Program-made: the position numbers and the translations under genes
Origin: an uncultured Planctomycetaceae bacterium
Lineage (GTDB): Bacteria; Planctomycetota; Phycisphaerae; SM23-33
Length of the DNA stretch: 64,000 nucleotides
Direction of reading: 5' to 3'
NCBI GenBank assembly: GCA_964427875.1
Contig: CAYRVX010000021.1
Coordinates: forward strand, 629 to 64,628
Shown here: positions 2,445 to 53,096 of the stretch, in pieces
Numbering within the stretch: position 1 is the first letter of the stretch
How the letters are laid out: each line of letters opens with the position of its first letter
Notes under the pieces: generated by a model
Database searches by the model: none
Told to the model about the DNA's origin: nothing
Seen by the model: only the letters and a program-made list of their open reading frames with translations

Positions 2445-3917
2445 ATGATAGCGCAGACGACCGTGCCACCCGTGGAGGCCGAGTTTGGCTTCCGTGCCGT
2501 TCTCGACTGGCTCCTGGCCGTCAACACGCAGGTCAACGACTTCGTGTGGGGCCCGCCGATGCTCGTGCTGCTGATCGGGGCGGGCATCTACATCAGCATC
2601 CGGACAAAGTTCATCCAGTTCCGCAAGTTCGGCCTGATGAGCCGGGAGACGCTGGGGAAGATCTTTCGCCGCGGCCCGGCGGCCGAGGGCGACGTGACAC
2701 CCTTCCAGGCCATGACGGTGGCCATGGGCGGCACGGTCGGCGTGGGCAACATCGCCGGCGTGGCCACCGCCATCGCCGCCGGCGGGCCGGGCGCTATCTT
2801 CTGGATGCTCGTTTCCGGCCTCGTGGGCATGGCGACGAAGTTCGCCGAGGTCGTCCTCGGCCTGCACTACCGCCGGCGCGAGCCCGGCGGGCCGATGATG
2901 GGCGGGCCGATGACGTACATCACCCGCGGCCTGGGGCGGCGATGGAAGCCGCTGGCCGTCATTTTCTGCATCTTCGGCGCGCTGGCCGGGCTGGGCATCG
3001 GGAACATGACGCAGGCCCACTCCGTGGCCGACGGCGTTCAGCGGCTCCTCCAGCCGGACGCCGCGCCGGGAGAGCTCGAGAGCCTCGGCATCGTGCGATG
3101 GATCGTCGGGGGCGTCCTGATCGTCGCCGTGGGGCTGGTGACCGTCGGCGGCATCAGGCGGATCGCACACGTCGCCATGTTCTGCGTGCCGTTCATGTGC
3201 ACGCTGTACATGATCGCGGCGTTCGTCGTCATCGCGATGTACGCCCCTCAGATCCCCGGGGCGCTGTGGCTCATCCTCAAGCATGCCTTCACCCCGACGG
3301 CGGCCACGGGCGGCTTCGCGGGCGTCGGCGTGATGATGGCCGTGCGATACGGCATCGCCCGCGGCGTATTCAGCAACGAGGCCGGGCTCGGCAGCGCGCC
3401 CATGGCCCACGCCACTGCACAGACCGACCACCCCGCGCGCCAGGGGCTGTGGGGCATCTTCGAGGTCTTCTTCGACACGATCGTCATGTGCTCGGCCACG
3501 GCGCTGGTGATCATCCTGACCGGCGTCTGGACCGGCGGGGAGAAGGGCGCGAACCTGACGATCAGCGCGTTCTGCCAGCCGCTGGGGGACACGTTCGGGT
3601 GTGTGCTCGTGACCTTCTGCATGATCCTGACGGCGTACGATACGATCCTCGCGTGGTGCTTCTACGGCGAGACCTGCTGCTCGTTCATCTTCGGCCACGG
3701 GCACTTGGTCCGCATGACCTACCGCGTGATCTGGCTCCCGTTCATCCTGCTGGGGGCGCTCGGTCGCCTGGAGGCGATCTGGGCGGTCTCCGACACGCTA
3801 AACGGCCTGATGGCCATCCCCAACCTGATCGCCCTGATCGCCCTGGCCGGCGTGGTGGTCCGCCTGACCAAGGGCTTTCTCGCCGGCAAGCCCTACGAGC
3901 CGCCGGGGGATCACTGA
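2445..3917 (+). CDS. Sodium:alanine/glycine symporter (AGCS/AlsT family)
   Basis: TVGVGNIAGVATAIAAGGPGAIFWM, GGPMTYI, RGVFSNEAGLGSAP, NGLMAIPNLIAL. Confidence 0.93.
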   Translation: MIAQTTVPPVEAEFGFRAVLDWLLAVNTQVNDFVWGPPMLVLLIGAGIYISIRTKFIQFRKFGLMSRETLGKIFRRGPAAEGDVTPFQAMTVAMGGTVGVGNIAGVATAIAAGGPGAIFWMLVSGLVGMATKFAEVVLGLHYRRREPGGPMMGGPMTYITRGLGRRWKPLAVIFCIFGALAGLGIGNMTQAHSVADGVQRLLQPDAAPGELESLGIVRWIVGGVLIVAVGLVTVGGIRRIAHVAMFCVPFMCTLYMIAAFVVIAMYAPQIPGALWLILKHAFTPTAATGGFAGVGVMMAVRYGIARGVFSNEAGLGSAPMAHATAQTDHPARQGLWGIFEVFFDTIVMCSATALVIILTGVWTGGEKGANLTISAFCQPLGDTFGCVLVTFCMILTAYDTILAWCFYGETCCSFIFGHGHLVRMTYRVIWLPFILLGALGRLEAIWAVSDTLNGLMAIPNLIALIALAGVVVRLTKGFLAGKPYEPPGDH

Positions 3918-48103: not shown

Positions 48104-49183
<1,080 letters not shown>

Positions 49184-49311: not shown

Positions 49312-50250
49312 ATGGCAAAGACCACTGCACAGGAATTGCAGGAGTATCTGGACCCGAAGGTCCTGGCGAAGATCACGCGGCTGGACCTCCAGGCCCGCCT
49401 GGTGGTCGAGGGGTTTATCTCGGGCCTGCACCGCAGCCCGTTCCACGGGTTCAGCGTGGAGTTCGCCTCGCACCGCAAGTACGCCCCCGGCGACGACATC
49501 AAGCACATCGACTGGAAGGTCCTCGGGCGGACCGACCGCTACTACATCAAGCAGTACGAAGAGGAGACGAACCTCAAGGCCACCTTCCTCGTGGACGGCA
49601 GCGAGTCGATGCTGTACGGCACCAGCCGCAAGGAGGGCATGACGAAGTATCACTACTCGGCGGCGGTGGCGGCGTCCCTGGCGTTTCTGCTGCTCCAGCA
49701 GCAGGACGCGGTGGGCCTGGCCGTCTTCGACGAGGACCTGCGGACGTACCTGCCGGCCTCTTCGAACCCCAACCAGATCAAGTCGCTCGTCCACGCGATG
49801 GACGGCATCGACCCGAAGGCCAAGACGTCGCTGGAGCCCATCTGCCACTCGGTCGCCGAGAAGATCCCCCGCCGTGGCCTGGTGTGCCTCGTGAGCGACC
49901 TGTTCGTGGACGTCGACGGCGTGATCCGGGGCTTGCAGCACTTCCGCCACTACGACCACGAGGTCATCGTGCTGCACGTGATGGACGAGGACGAACTGAC
50001 CTTTCCCTTCCAGGGCAACACGATGTTCCGGGGCCTGGAGGAGACGGGGAACCTCACGATCGAGCCGCGAGCCCTCCGCCAGGGGTATATCGAGGCCGTG
50101 GAACGCTTCTGCACGGAAGTCAAACGGAAGTGCATCGCCAGCCGCATCGACTACAAGCTGATCTCCACGGCCGACCACCTGGACGCGGCCTTGCTGGCGT
50201 TCCTGGCCGCCCGCGCCGCCGCGACCCGCAAAGCAGGCTCCAAGCGCTAG
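49312..50250 (+). CDS. DUF58 domain (vWA-like) protein
   Basis: GLHRSPFHGFSVEFASHRKYAPGDDIKHIDWK, KQYEEET, VDGSESM, VSDL. Confidence 0.93.
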   Translation: MAKTTAQELQEYLDPKVLAKITRLDLQARLVVEGFISGLHRSPFHGFSVEFASHRKYAPGDDIKHIDWKVLGRTDRYYIKQYEEETNLKATFLVDGSESMLYGTSRKEGMTKYHYSAAVAASLAFLLLQQQDAVGLAVFDEDLRTYLPASSNPNQIKSLVHAMDGIDPKAKTSLEPICHSVAEKIPRRGLVCLVSDLFVDVDGVIRGLQHFRHYDHEVIVLHVMDEDELTFPFQGNTMFRGLEETGNLTIEPRALRQGYIEAVERFCTEVKRKCIASRIDYKLISTADHLDAALLAFLAARAAATRKAGSKR

Positions 50251-50764
50251 CCACAGAGGCACCGAGGCTCAGAGAGATCAGCAGAATGGATCGACATGAA
50301 GCTGCCCGACGGTGTGACGGAGATTCGAGGACAGAACTTCAGCGGAAGGAAGTACCCGCACAGGGAGCTCACCGAGAAGATCATCGGTTGTGCGATCGCC
50401 GTGCACAGGGAGCTTCAAGGCGGCTATGTGGAAGCCATCTACGAGAACGCGTTGGCCCACGAACTGAGGAAGGCAGGGCTGCTCGTTGAGCGGCAGGTCA
50501 AGTTCCCGGTGTACTACGACGGCGTTCCGGTCGGCGAGCACCGCGCCGATTTGATCGTGGAAAGGAAAGTGGTGGTGGAGCTGAAGGCCGTCGCCGACCT
50601 CGGCGATCAGCACGTTTCCCAGGTGATGAGCACGCTGCGGGCTGCCGGCATAAACGTAGGATTGCTGCTGAATTTCAACGAGGCGCGCCTGGTCGACGGC
50701 CTTCGCCGAATCGTCATGTAGGACCTTACATAGAATTGCCTCTGAGGCTCTGGGCCTCTGTGGC
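50250..50764. mobile_element. Candidate GxxExxY cassette bounded by 25-bp imperfect inverted repeats
   Basis: Left GCCACAGAGGCACCGAGGCTCAGAG (50250-50274) versus reverse complement of right arm (50740-50764) GCCACAGAGGCCCAGAGCCTCAGAG: 22/25 identical. Confidence 0.65.
50296..50721 (+). CDS. GxxExxY protein (PD-(D/E)XK nuclease-like)
   Basis: ELTEKIIGCAIAVHRELQGGYVEAIYENAL (GxxExxY), RADLIVERKVVVELKAV, GLLLNF. Confidence 0.93.
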   Translation: MKLPDGVTEIRGQNFSGRKYPHRELTEKIIGCAIAVHRELQGGYVEAIYENALAHELRKAGLLVERQVKFPVYYDGVPVGEHRADLIVERKVVVELKAVADLGDQHVSQVMSTLRAAGINVGLLLNFNEARLVDGLRRIVM

Positions 50765-50774
50765 AAACACCAAA

Positions 50775-53096
50775 ATGCCATTTTTACATCCCATCGTGTT
50801 CTGGACGGGGCTGGCGGCGGTTTCGGTGCCGATCCTGATCCATCTGCTGAACCGCAGGCGGTTCCGCATGATGAACTGGGCCGCCATGCAGTTCCTGTGG
50901 GACTCCGTCCGCAAAAACCGCCGCCGCCTGCGGATCGAGGAGCTCATCCTCCTGGCGCTTCGCTGCCTCCTGCTGGTGATGCTGGCGACGGCGCTGGCGA
51001 GGTTCACCGGGTGCAAGGCCATGCAGGCCCTGCCCGGCGGCACGGAGAGCCAGACCGCCGTCTTCCTCCTCGACGACAGCTACTCCATGGGCCAGCGCGT
51101 CGGCGGGGGGACGATCTTCTCGGCCGCGACGACCGACGTGGCCGAGCAGCTCAAAAAGCTCTCCCAGACCGACAAGGTGGCGATCCTCCGGACCTCGGGC
51201 GCCGACGGCGGCGAGCCGTTCTTCAAGCTCACTCACGTGGCCGACGCCGAGCTCGAGGAGTTGTCGGCGCGCCTGGCCGGGCTGACGCCGTCGGACGGGC
51301 GCGCCCGGCTCGACCGGGCGCTGGCAGCCGCAGGGAAGGTCTTCCAGGGCGACAAGTCCGTCGTACGGCGGCTGTACGTCTACAGCGACTTCCGGCGCGT
51401 GGACCTGGCCGCGGCCGGCGAGCCCGACGCGATCCGCGACGAGTTCGAGAACCTCCGGAAACTGAACGTGGACGTCGTCGCCATGGACTTCGGCCGCAAG
51501 CCCAAGGACAACCTCACGATCGAGTCCGTGGGGATGATCGAGAAGTTCGCCATCAGCGGCGTGCCGGTCCGGGTCCGGGTGGAGGTCCGCAACCACGGGC
51601 GGGCCGCGGCCAGGGACGTCGAGCTCCGGCTGACGGCGAGGGTCAGCACGGCCGAAGGCCTCCGCGAGGTCGAGCTGCCCACCGCAGCCATCGATTCCCT
51701 CGAACCTCGCAGCATCGGGCGGGTCGAGTTCCAGGTGACGTGCTCGCACCCCGGGCCCGCGGTCATCACGGCCGGCCTGCCTCCCGACGAGCTGGCCGCC
51801 GACGACCTCGCACACCTGGCCCTCGACGTGCGCCAGGCGATCAACGTGCTGGCCGTGGACGGGCGGCCGGACATATCCGACCCCACCGAGAGCGAGTCCT
51901 TCTTCTTCGTCCACGCGATCGACCCGGACCGCAACGGCAGCGAAGGCGCGAAGGTCGAGATCGTCTCCCCCAGCGCGATGGGCGAGAGTCCGCTGGCGAA
52001 CTACGACCTGGTGGCGCTGCTGAACGTCGGCGAGCTGCCGATCATGCTGGACGCCAACGGCGCCGCGCACTACCCCCAGCTCGATGCCCTGACGGAGTTC
52101 GTCCGTTCCGGCGGCGGGCTGGTGATCTTCACCGGCGAGGAGGTCAACCTGACGTTCTACAACGACGCCCTCTACGCCAACGGGTCGGGGCTCAGCCCGT
52201 ACCGCCTCGCGCCGCGGCTGGGCGACCCGGCGAAGCGAGACCGCTTCTTCCGCCTCGACCCCAAGAGCATCGCCTCCGAGGGCGTGCTGAAGGTCTTCAG
52301 GGATTTCCTCGCCGCCGGCGTGGACCCGACGCGGTTCATCCGCTTCTACGCCTTCCACGGCACGAGCCCCATGGGCCCGCCGCCCTCGTCGCCGGAGGTC
52401 AAGCCGCCGCGGGTGCTGGCGAGATTCGCCGACGAGGACAACTCTCCGGCCATCGTCGCGCGGCAGGTCGGCCGGGGCACGGTCCTGATGTTCTACACGT
52501 CGGCGACGATGGCCTGGAACGACTGGCCCGCCGACGAGAACGGCACGTACGTCGCCGTGCTGAACGACATGCTGGCGTACCTGGGGCGCCCGCAGGACCC
52601 GGGCCTCTCGGGACACGTCGGCGAGCCCGTCGTCTTCAGCCTGCCCCACGAGCTGCGCGACGCGACGGCCACGCTCAAGACGCCGCTGCATCCGACCCAG
52701 CCGGTGGTCCCCCTCGTGCCCGTCCGGAAGATGGACCGCCCCGACCGCCAGCCGGAGCAACTGCTGCGATACAAACGGGCGGACCACGCGGGCGCCTACA
52801 GCCTGGAGCTGGCCCTGCCGGACGAGACGACCCGGCAGGTCCTCTTCGCCCGGAACGTGGACCCGGCCGAGGGCGACCTGACGTGCGGGCGCGAAGCGGC
52901 ATTGGCCGCGGCGCTGGCAAGCGAGGAGTTCACCTACATGGACCGCACCGCCGCCCGACCCGGGCGGGTCGAGAAGCCCCAGGTGCACAAGGAGTACTGG
53001 ACGTGGGCGCTGGGAATCCTTGCCTTGCTGCTCGCCGTCGAGACCTTCCTCGCCCAGCGCTTCGGCCACTATGCGCCCACCGGAAAAGACCGATGA
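50775..53096 (+). CDS. BatA-domain / vWA / glutamine-amidotransferase-like membrane protein
   Basis: PILIHLLNRRR...WAAMQFL...LLALRCLL (BatA N-terminus), LLDDSYSM MIDAS, YSDF, FVRSGGGLVIF, C-terminal TM LLAVETFLA. Confidence 0.88.
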   Translation: MPFLHPIVFWTGLAAVSVPILIHLLNRRRFRMMNWAAMQFLWDSVRKNRRRLRIEELILLALRCLLLVMLATALARFTGCKAMQALPGGTESQTAVFLLDDSYSMGQRVGGGTIFSAATTDVAEQLKKLSQTDKVAILRTSGADGGEPFFKLTHVADAELEELSARLAGLTPSDGRARLDRALAAAGKVFQGDKSVVRRLYVYSDFRRVDLAAAGEPDAIRDEFENLRKLNVDVVAMDFGRKPKDNLTIESVGMIEKFAISGVPVRVRVEVRNHGRAAARDVELRLTARVSTAEGLREVELPTAAIDSLEPRSIGRVEFQVTCSHPGPAVITAGLPPDELAADDLAHLALDVRQAINVLAVDGRPDISDPTESESFFFVHAIDPDRNGSEGAKVEIVSPSAMGESPLANYDLVALLNVGELPIMLDANGAAHYPQLDALTEFVRSGGGLVIFTGEEVNLTFYNDALYANGSGLSPYRLAPRLGDPAKRDRFFRLDPKSIASEGVLKVFRDFLAAGVDPTRFIRFYAFHGTSPMGPPPSSPEVKPPRVLARFADEDNSPAIVARQVGRGTVLMFYTSATMAWNDWPADENGTYVAVLNDMLAYLGRPQDPGLSGHVGEPVVFSLPHELRDATATLKTPLHPTQPVVPLVPVRKMDRPDRQPEQLLRYKRADHAGAYSLELALPDETTRQVLFARNVDPAEGDLTCGREAALAAALASEEFTYMDRTAARPGRVEKPQVHKEYWTWALGILALLLAVETFLAQRFGHYAPTGKDR

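Follow-up and report, generated by a model that had tools for sequence, protein, structure and literature searches.

A nuclease gene in the loop of an inverted repeat at the DUF58–BatA junction

The stretch of DNA analysed here (the window) comprises 64,000 nucleotides of contig CAYRVX010000021.1 from the genome assembly GCA_964427875.1 of an uncultured Planctomycetaceae bacterium. The window contains a MoxR-type operon in which a gene encoding a GxxExxY protein is located between the genes for DUF58 and BatA and is enclosed by the two arms of an inverted repeat. The arms and the gene form a cassette, in which the gene for a PD-(D/E)XK nuclease, in general of approximately 115 amino acids, is positioned in the loop between inverted arrays of two to three units, each 8–10 nt long. 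The features of the region are as follows:

48104..49183, + strand: gene for a MoxR-type AAA_3 ATPase, the first gene of the operon (E 3.3e-63)
49312..50250, + strand: DUF58 gene (E 4.9e-46), with the stop codon TAG at 50248–50250
50250..50764, + strand: whole cassette of 515 bp, composed of the left arm, the GxxExxY gene, and the right arm (inverted-repeat search, pattern chance check)
50250..50274, + strand: left arm, GCCACAGAGGCACCGAGGCTCAGAG, which consists of GC followed by the 8-nt units CACAGAGG, CACCGAGG, and CTCAGAGA
50296..50721, + strand: GxxExxY/PDDEXK_3 gene, 141 amino acids plus stop (PF13366, TIGR04256)
50740..50764, + strand: right arm, complementary to the reversed left arm at 22/25 positions
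50775..53096, + strand: gene with a BatA N-terminal domain and a VWA domain (E 5.4e-15), starting with the ATG at 50775

The first base of the left arm is the G of the DUF58 stop codon TAG, which results in a one-base overlap, and 10 nt separate the end of the right arm from the BatA ATG. The arm pair is the longest inverted repeat of the region, with a length of 25 nt, a complementarity of 88% (22/25), and 465 nt between the arms. When up to three mismatches were allowed, the arm pattern matched the window at exactly two positions, which are the two arms, and two matches were found in none of 100 dinucleotide shuffles of the window. Arm pairs were scored without gaps (+1/−2), and a flanking repeat was counted at a score of at least 14. 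The focal pair reached a score of 16, whereas placing this geometry at random 1000 times in the same genome gave a maximum of 15 and a 99th percentile of 13. An earlier description of the locus, made from the sequence alone (the sequence-only reading), had given the positions of the arms, their 22/25 match, their 8-nt units, and their spacing from the DUF58 stop and the BatA ATG, all of which were borne out by re-reading and by the repeat search. The identities that it had assigned to the DUF58, BatA-type, and GxxExxY genes were confirmed by profile searches.

No target-site duplication was seen when the ends of the cassette were read, and no transposase or integrase domain was detected among the four scanned proteins, which are the nuclease and its operon neighbours; the sequence-only reading had arrived at the same view. 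No Rfam family matched within positions 49800–51200, and a simple scan for promoters and terminators found nothing, including no terminator-like site. Both the minimum-energy and the centroid structures predicted for the RNA are closed by a stem in which the two arms pair. The fold has a z-score of −2.0, and 3 of 100 shuffles fold equally well.

The GxxExxY protein and its family

The focal protein belongs to the families PF13366 (PDDEXK_3; E 7.9e-38, 129.9 bits, cut-off 22) and TIGR04256 (GxxExxY; E 2.3e-39, 134.4 bits, cut-off 35). It matched no other family, neither PF05635 (S23p) nor the HUH/Y1 transposases that include RAYT, the tyrosine transposases associated with repetitive extragenic palindromes (REP). 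The protein contains the motifs G43-x-x-E46-x-x-Y49 and D85...E95-x-K97. Residues G43, E46, D85, E95, and K97 are invariant in 70 aligned sequences of 42–68% identity, and Y49 is present in at least 90% of them. Judged by this alignment, the protein is apparently under purifying selection for catalysis. The AlphaFold2 model of the protein is confident, with a mean predicted local distance difference test score (pLDDT) of 93.1. Its best Foldseek matches, which are weak, were PD-(D/E)XK nucleases: lambda exonuclease, the Cas4 protein SSO0001, and a related alkaline exonuclease. The Foldseek search of the PDB gave no match at E ≤ 0.001, and the PDB sequence search gave none beyond one chance-level row.

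The PDDEXK_3/GxxExxY family comprises 16,551 clusters at 50% identity (E ≤ 0.001). Of the 150 best representatives of the family, about 25 have lengths of 260–295 amino acids and contain two GxxExxY domains in tandem, which fits with a dimeric working unit. The two-domain representatives include P0002–P0006, P0008, and P0011–P0014, which look like covalent dimers. Hardly any plasmids carry the family (8 of 72,556 records, each typed as non-mobilizable), and PF13366 matches also occur in the control genomes of Corynebacterium, Lactococcus, and Sulfolobus. For the focal protein, none of the PADLOC defence models matched at E ≤ 0.01, and the search of PHROGs gave no match. The function of PDDEXK_3 is listed as unknown in the sole survey that we found (PMC3424549), and in PMC8934634 GxxExxY appears as a domain adjoining a reverse transcriptase.

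Inverted repeats flank GxxExxY genes in relatives and across phyla

The assembly to which the window belongs (7.13 Mb, 235 contigs, 92% complete) contains three PF13366 genes, all of which are flanked by inverted repeats made of tandem units, with scores of 16, 16, and 25. The arms are of the CACAGAGG type at the focal locus, of the CACAAAGG/CACGAAGG type on contig C63, and of the GGATTACACGGATT type on contig C38. Because the three copies have different arms, they do not represent a classical transposon with terminal inverted repeats.

The comparison was extended to 40 related genomes, ranging from the same genus up to the same class, in addition to the genome of the window. PF13366 is present in 29 of the 40 relatives (30/41 with the own genome), with 0–6 matches per genome, and some copies contain stop codons or are only fragments. 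The set comprised 72 loci including those of the own genome, two of which were dropped because of short flanks. A flanking inverted repeat was found at 65 of the 70 usable loci.

A second set was obtained by scanning one genome per species with two peptide patterns and taking the best 80 of 523 confirmed matches, and therefore holds only relatives of approximately 44–64% identity. After the removal of three loci with short flanks, 77 were usable. Their hosts belong to Planctomycetota, Verrucomicrobiota, Bacteroidota, Acidobacteriota, Chloroflexota, Thermodesulfobacteriota, Pseudomonadota, and candidate phyla, and include one archaeal bin. Among loci L064, L087, L091, L105, and L107 are Mucilaginibacter strains that, judging from their record titles, are cultured isolates. 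Flanking inverted repeats are present at 56/77 loci of this cross-phylum set, compared with 0/140 controls in which the geometry was shifted by 900 nt and 4/77 controls in which flanks were swapped between loci. The matches between swapped flanks are due to arm motifs that different loci share. Weak arms with the same motif can also be seen at several cross-phylum loci that scored below the threshold. At least two loci, which look identical (L050/L148 and L038/L139), are present in both sets, and the 121 arm pairs pooled from the two sets therefore include duplicates.

The sequence-only reading had raised the possibility that other GxxExxY loci carry inverted repeats starting with CCAC(A/G), and inverted repeats starting with CCAC or CCGC are indeed strongly enriched in the own genome, in the relatives, and in the cross-phylum set. 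Neither a gene present without repeats at this junction in all relatives nor a lack of enrichment at other loci was observed.

Arm anatomy and association with protein clades

The anatomy of the arms was derived from the 121 pooled arm pairs with scores of at least 14. The arms have a median length of 30 nt and mostly contain two to three units. The starts of consecutive C-R-C-R-R-A cores are separated by 8 nt in 49 cases, 9 nt in 134, and 10 nt in 40. The most common cores are CACAGAG (103), CGCAGAG (55), CACAGAT (35), CACAAAG (29), CGCAGAT (26), CACGGAT (26), and CACGGAG (24). As a rule, GC or AC stands before the outermost unit, and this produces ends such as GCCAC...GTGGC. A second group of arms is composed of CAGGAT, CAGGGAT, or CATGATT units. 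Watson–Crick pairs are formed at 3494 of the 3804 aligned arm positions, including those in the variable spacers, and the arms are therefore true inverted repeats rather than mere arrays of one motif. Among the mismatches, read on the sense strand, G.U (92) is not in excess of A.C (85).

In the cross-phylum tree, the arm class tracks the clade of the protein rather than the phylum of the host. The arm-class label changes 24 times along the tree, compared with a mean of 47.5 for shuffled labels, and none of 200 shuffles gave a number as low. All 14 genes with CRCRGAG arms are located in one clade of 22 members (support 95/88), which spans Planctomycetota, Acidobacteriota, Bacteroidota, Thermodesulfobacteriota, and Verrucomicrobiota. 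The CAGGAT and CRCRGAT arm classes have multi-phylum protein clades of their own, and in the relatives there are protein clades with the arm classes CGCGAA, CGACACAGAG, CACRAAG, and CACGAATT. In four clades, both flanking genes are common to members from four to five genera, with identities of 51–88% in six-frame translated alignments, which indicates that the cassettes are old, vertically kept residents. In four orthologous cassettes from the junction, the spacers outside the arms cannot be aligned by eye, but the cassettes have retained their unit class and their terminal CCAC/CCGC. Neutral DNA is expected to be randomised at such distances. According to these sequence comparisons, the gene and its arms appear to be inherited, and to have crossed phyla, as one unit. 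We are highly confident that the gene and the arms belong together as one conserved unit, in which the arms are specific to the clade.

The DUF58–BatA junction in related genomes

Thirty loci were fetched with the DUF58 protein, and 28 of them show both DUF58 and BatA (27 from relatives and that of the own genome). The GxxExxY gene is present at five of the 28 junctions (own genome, G012, G015, G017, and G023), and repeats were found in all five. In three genomes, the gap between DUF58 and BatA is 3, 6, and 14 nt long, and in two more distant ones it is 23 nt or the genes overlap. The presence of the gene at only 5/28 junctions and the gaps of 3–14 nt in three relatives agree with the view of the sequence-only reading that the cassette is a unit inserted at the junction, but this insertion did not happen recently. 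One clade, whose members have both flanks in common, comprises four of the five junction genes, including the focal one, so the focal cassette was in place before at least four genera split. The relatives with 3–14-nt junctions are too distant to define the boundaries of the cassette. The junction gene of G012 is placed in a distant clade, and branches with good support require no fewer than three changes of the label "junction", which shows that the junction was occupied more than once.

Inverted repeats are present in 13/28 junctions, compared with 0/69 controls. Eight of these junction hairpins (L006, L007, L008, L011, L014, L017, L018, and L029) do not contain a GxxExxY gene and have loops of 3–193 nt. 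Their units include GATTGCG (four times), AAATCTGA (three times), AATTGCC, CATTCGG, GCCACCA, TCGAATG, and others. The presence of a hairpin at this position seems to be conserved while its sequence turns over.

A public metagenome contig (X5, positions 50139–51034) contains the cassette with 37 differences in 896 positions and thus represents an approximately 96% identical strain, and more distant public contigs have other junction contents. The public data covered consisted of contigs from four runs; one run filed as metatranscriptomic was flagged as probably DNA. The genome G001, which is from the same genus, lacks the cassette and has 166 unrelated nucleotides at the junction (L005). Within these, CACGAGGAC CACGAAGAC resembles a degenerate single arm that has no partner, and is possibly the remnant of a lost cassette. 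The two cassettes that G001 does possess correspond to rearranged places in the own genome, and one of them is the orthologue of the C63 cassette. In G003, a GxxExxY gene of the focal clade (C12:42891-43238, L134) is located upstream of moxR. The junction of the same genome (L014) is 479 nt long, does not contain the gene, and ends in an arm of the same type.

Gene-less hairpins and unit arrays

The own genome contains 22 gene-less hairpins of the CRCRRAG type, with loops of 8–385 nt; the same scan also returned the C63 cassette. In two of the hairpins (C115:6802-6888 and C51:510-596), an arm matches the focal left arm at 25/26 positions, including the odd third unit CTCAGAG. Both are located inside a larger repeat of approximately 200 nt with shared flanks.

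Arrays with the tandem pattern CACAGAG-N1-3-CRCAGAG were counted across the 41 genomes, and the pattern read backwards served as a control, with 0–4 matches. In the 30 genomes that contain a PF13366 gene, the median count is 15 and the maximum 246, and 17 of them have at least ten arrays. None of the 11 gene-free genomes reaches ten (median 0, maximum 5), and their individual counts are 0, 5, 0, 0, 1, 2, 0, 0, 2, 1, and 0. Within the genus, there are 37 arrays in the own genome compared with 0 in G001. At least ten arrays of the CGCGAAY type occur in 9/30 genomes with the gene and in 0/11 without it.

Intervening-sequence proteins share the hairpin packaging

A tandem-repeat scan of the own genome identified 93 pairs of reverse-complementary short-unit arrays located within 2 kb of each other, of which 82 have a period of 7–9. 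Array pairs with loops of approximately 490 nt enclose open reading frames (ORFs) of PF05635 (E 1.7e-38, 2.8e-31, and 2.3e-12), the family of S23p proteins known as the cargo of 23S rRNA intervening sequences (IVSs). Flanking inverted repeats are present at six of the eight PF05635 loci of the own genome. The PF05635 genes in hairpin loops are located at:

C25:65824-66371
C89:27509-28170
C194:1-586
C47:44087-44621
C51:28186-28752

Their arms consist of tandem 7–8-nt units, namely AGGTCGT, GAATGAC, CGGAACC, CGTTAACT, and GAGGACGAC. In a wider sample of 30 PF05635 loci (29 from relatives and that of C25 again), flanking inverted repeats were found at 24, and the units are mostly (T)AGGNNNN heptamers. 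Arms of the CRCRRA type were found at 1/24 of these loci, compared with 50/65 GxxExxY loci of the relatives' set. The comparison of the cassette with an intervening element, made in the sequence-only reading, is therefore apt, since PF05635 genes of the own genome share the hairpin packaging.

In five relatives, a PF05635 gene is located directly downstream of a DUF58 paralogue (G016:C61:31100-32427, G005:C71:7629-9106, G018:C151:963-2338, G003:C18:22820-24231, and G009:C79:10563-11926). The 3' junction of DUF58 thus seems to be a favoured seat for both types of cargo.

According to PMC4990558, the 23S rRNA IVS of Coxiella has an inverted-repeat stem with two to three GACAGAT heptamers, the number of which varies between strains, ahead of its ORF, and is cleaved by RNase III where the first heptamer begins. 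The same source calls the element selfish and sporadic, with an unknown origin and mode of spread.

Comparison with known repeat systems

The cassette is most similar to IVSs in its architecture and to REPIN–RAYT systems, in which REP sequences form hairpins, in its population structure. As in 23S rRNA IVSs, a small ORF is located in the loop of an inverted-repeat stem, the arms contain short units in tandem, and the distribution is sporadic. However, the focal cassette is positioned in a junction of a protein-coding operon rather than in helix 25 or 45, its cargo is a PF13366 nuclease and not a four-helix-bundle protein of the S23p/PF05635 family, and in the relatives each of the two cargo families has arm units of its own. 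Because it is not in an rRNA gene and contains no S23p ORF, the cassette is not an IVS, and the lack of an HUH transposase distinguishes it from REPIN–RAYT.

Features of REPIN–RAYT systems were taken from 10.1101/2022.05.22.493013, PMC3116915, and PMC3337134. The likeness consists of a low-copy, vertically inherited gene that is flanked by inverted repeats at a fixed locus, many dispersed gene-less hairpins, and repeat classes that go with gene clades. The differences are that the enzyme is a PD-(D/E)XK nuclease of approximately 115 amino acids instead of an HUH tyrosine transposase, that the arms are arrays of 8–10-nt units instead of single REP palindromes, and that in the present system the match between gene and repeats is at the class level only and mobilisation is putative.

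The short tandem heptamer repeats of cyanobacteria, termed STRR, are a comparable case of 7-nt units arrayed in intergenic DNA. The TAACTGA repeats of Beggiatoaceae, as described in PMC4679880, are also sporadic intergenic tandem arrays of 7-nt units, for which horizontal spread was suggested and no mechanism is known. They differ from the arms studied here in that they are direct repeats, apart from one inverted case, lie for the most part immediately before start codons, and enclose no nuclease gene (PMC4679880). Homing endonuclease genes resemble the cassette in being small selfish nuclease genes residing in a site that the nuclease may recognise, with the host function left intact. One homing endonuclease, I-Ssp6803I, has the PD-(D/E)XK fold. 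In contrast to homing endonuclease genes, the cassette has no intron or intein context, its locus has long been stable, and no empty target allele was found.

In the literature searched, which did not extend to subscription journals and the notes of family-model curators, no description of repeats around GxxExxY genes was found. Together, the observations point to a so far undescribed system composed of a nuclease and hairpin repeats.

Proposed mechanism and alternative explanations

We propose that the cassettes constitute a widespread family in which the nuclease acts on its own repeats, and which combines properties of IVSs with those of REPIN–RAYT systems; in this full form, we give the proposal an even chance of being correct. 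The nuclease, which is probably dimeric, would recognise the repeated unit or the hairpin or cruciform formed by it, and its targets would be its own arms and the gene-less hairpins of its class, which are numerous in the genome. Cutting, followed by host repair or template switching, could keep the arms alike and allow the arrays of units to expand and contract. Cutting and repair might also spread or maintain the gene-less copies, as has been proposed for the action of RAYT on REPINs, albeit by an enzyme of a different fold. In the operon transcript, the arms may close into a stem as they do in rRNA IVSs, and this stem could be a substrate for RNase III or keep the stop codon of DUF58 close to the start of BatA. 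The cassette would be tolerated in the operon because it interrupts no reading frame.

The predicted stem pairing agrees with an explanation that operates at the RNA level only, in which the cassette is an IVS whose arms do no more than form a transcript stem cut by RNase III, the ORF is either a passenger or freed for its own translation, and the protein has no action on the arms. Such an element would have the architecture of the Coxiella 23S IVS (PMC4990558), the IVS-protein genes of the own genome are packaged in the same kind of hairpin, and the excess of junction hairpins (13/28 compared with 0/69 controls) suggests a role between cistrons. We nevertheless regard this explanation as unlikely. 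The suggestion of the sequence-only reading that the arms form a long RNA stem looping out the gene finds no specific backing: the arms can pair in the predicted fold, but G.U is not in excess on the sense strand (92 compared with 85), and the arm mismatches thus show no wobble bias. Moreover, the z-score of the fold is just −2.0, with 3/100 shuffles equalling it, and the catalytic residues of the supposed passenger are invariant. RNase III does not require a particular sequence, yet the unit classes are kept within nuclease clades across phyla.

If the gene were instead a free-standing nuclease gene of the homing type, the hairpins would pre-exist as targets and repair would move the gene into their loops. 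This would explain why the gene is always in the loop, why its genome also contains hairpins of its class that lack the gene, and why distant GxxExxY lineages settled in the junction on at least two occasions (G012); copies broken by stops or reduced to fragments are expected of selfish genes. It is, however, difficult to reconcile with 0–6 gene copies per genome in the presence of tens to hundreds of possible targets and with cassettes that are stable at the same locus across genera. Gene-free genomes are almost without arrays, although targets could exist without the gene, and we consider homing rather improbable.

The gene and the repeats could also have met by coincidence, the hairpin being a generic intergenic one, such as a REP-like stabiliser, a terminator, or a by-product of slippage, next to an unrelated small gene. 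The own genome does contain many tandem-unit hairpins of many types (82/93 pairs with a period of 7–9), and eight orthologous junctions have a hairpin and no GxxExxY gene. Nevertheless, a coincidence is very improbable and is already largely refuted by the flank controls, the cargo-specific arms, and the arm-class tree: the enrichment around GxxExxY genes is far above that of the controls, the arm motifs in the relatives differ between the cargo types (1/24 compared with 50/65), and the arm class tracks the protein clade. Furthermore, the simple scan found no terminator-like site. It is hardly credible that the cassette is a classical insertion sequence or a transposon of the miniature inverted-repeat transposable element (MITE) type, with GxxExxY as the transposase. 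Inverted repeats at both ends and a patchy distribution (30/41 genomes) are properties of such elements, and another PD-(D/E)XK family, PDDEXK_2, is annotated as a putative transposase in PMC3424549. Nevertheless, no target-site duplication was seen at the ends of the cassette, the three copies in the own genome have different arms, each genome has few copies, the same loci remain occupied across genera, plasmids almost never carry the family, and the protein has no match in PHROGs. The absence of both a target duplication and uniform ends shows that the cassette is neither an insertion sequence nor a MITE.

Several points weigh against the proposal that the nuclease acts on its own repeats. 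Cleavage and mobilisation by the nuclease are what we infer from sequence comparisons, and the self-mobilising or self-processing character suggested in the sequence-only reading is likewise putative. PD-(D/E)XK nucleases hydrolyse DNA and do not transfer strands, and the spread of the repeats would therefore have to lean on host repair, which is speculative. The 14-mers of the three arm pairs of the own genome are no more common in that genome than the 14-mers of foreign arms of the same class, so the link between the genes and the gene-less hairpins exists at the level of the unit class only. Nor is the link between unit class and cargo absolute, because the Coxiella IVS, with an ORF of another family, has GACAGAT units. 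The contrast in CACAGAG arrays between genomes with and without the gene has a Mann–Whitney p value of 2.7e-4, which is overstated because related genomes are not independent samples. For CGCGAAY arrays, the overall contrast is weak (Mann–Whitney p 0.33), and a gene with CGCGAA arms was found in only five of the nine genomes rich in these arrays and in none of the other four. Several of the gene-less hairpins sit in larger repeats of approximately 200 nt whose flanks are shared, and some other element may be copying them. The cross-phylum sample is not representative of the whole GxxExxY family. The sequence-only reading had looked to empty junctions for the exact boundaries of the cassette and to DNA reads for excised junctions; neither the related genomes nor the public metagenome contigs, the uncovered parts of which are uninformative, yielded an empty allele with exact boundaries, and the public contigs contained no exact excision joint.

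The proposal that the nuclease acts on its own repeats can be extended to a broader model, which we put forward tentatively and consider less probable than not being the case. In this model, GxxExxY proteins are minimal PD-(D/E)XK nucleases that recognise arrays of their own 8–10-nt unit, or the hairpin formed by such arrays, and are the enzymes of a second REPIN-like system, which operates without an HUH transposase and generates, homogenises, and disperses hairpins in many bacterial phyla. The 23S rRNA IVSs, whose ORF encodes a four-helix bundle, would be the rRNA-resident branch of the same kind of hairpin cassette. If this is true, it would provide a function for a family of more than 16,000 clusters and an origin for intervening sequences. 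The packaging of the gene and the abundance of gene-less arrays only in gene-bearing genomes provide a concrete, testable hypothesis for the target of GxxExxY proteins. The finding ties together three hitherto separate puzzles, namely sporadic short tandem repeats, REP/REPIN-like hairpins, and the origin of rRNA intervening sequences. If the nuclease has sequence or structure specificity for an 8–10-nt unit, it could possibly serve as a tool enzyme.

Additional hairpin families in the own genome

Hairpins with GAATGAC units (for example C101:21418-21522, C112:15216-15320, and C74:11396-11500) and with CGTTGACT/AACGAGTT units (for example C109:15344-15530 and C59:37774-37960) form families of approximately 14 and 19 copies, respectively, subsets of which look like miniature elements of 160–250 nt. 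One copy is nested in a CACAAAGG hairpin at C3:85364-85806. The abundant GAATGAC and AACGAGTT hairpins, and also the hairpins most similar to the focal arms, were rejected as clean REPIN-like families, since the sequence that their copies share continues into the flanks. They belong to larger repeats, and how often they occur therefore cannot be ascribed to the hairpin by itself.

The hairpins at C46:47074-47270, C14:53036-53214, C142:8095-8273, and C197:445-630, and less clearly that at C112:8109-8304, have CACAGAG arms and a conserved non-coding loop of approximately 140 nt. In these hairpins, the inverted repeat reaches approximately 20 nt outward past GCCAC, and they could represent a small RNA or a non-autonomous element.

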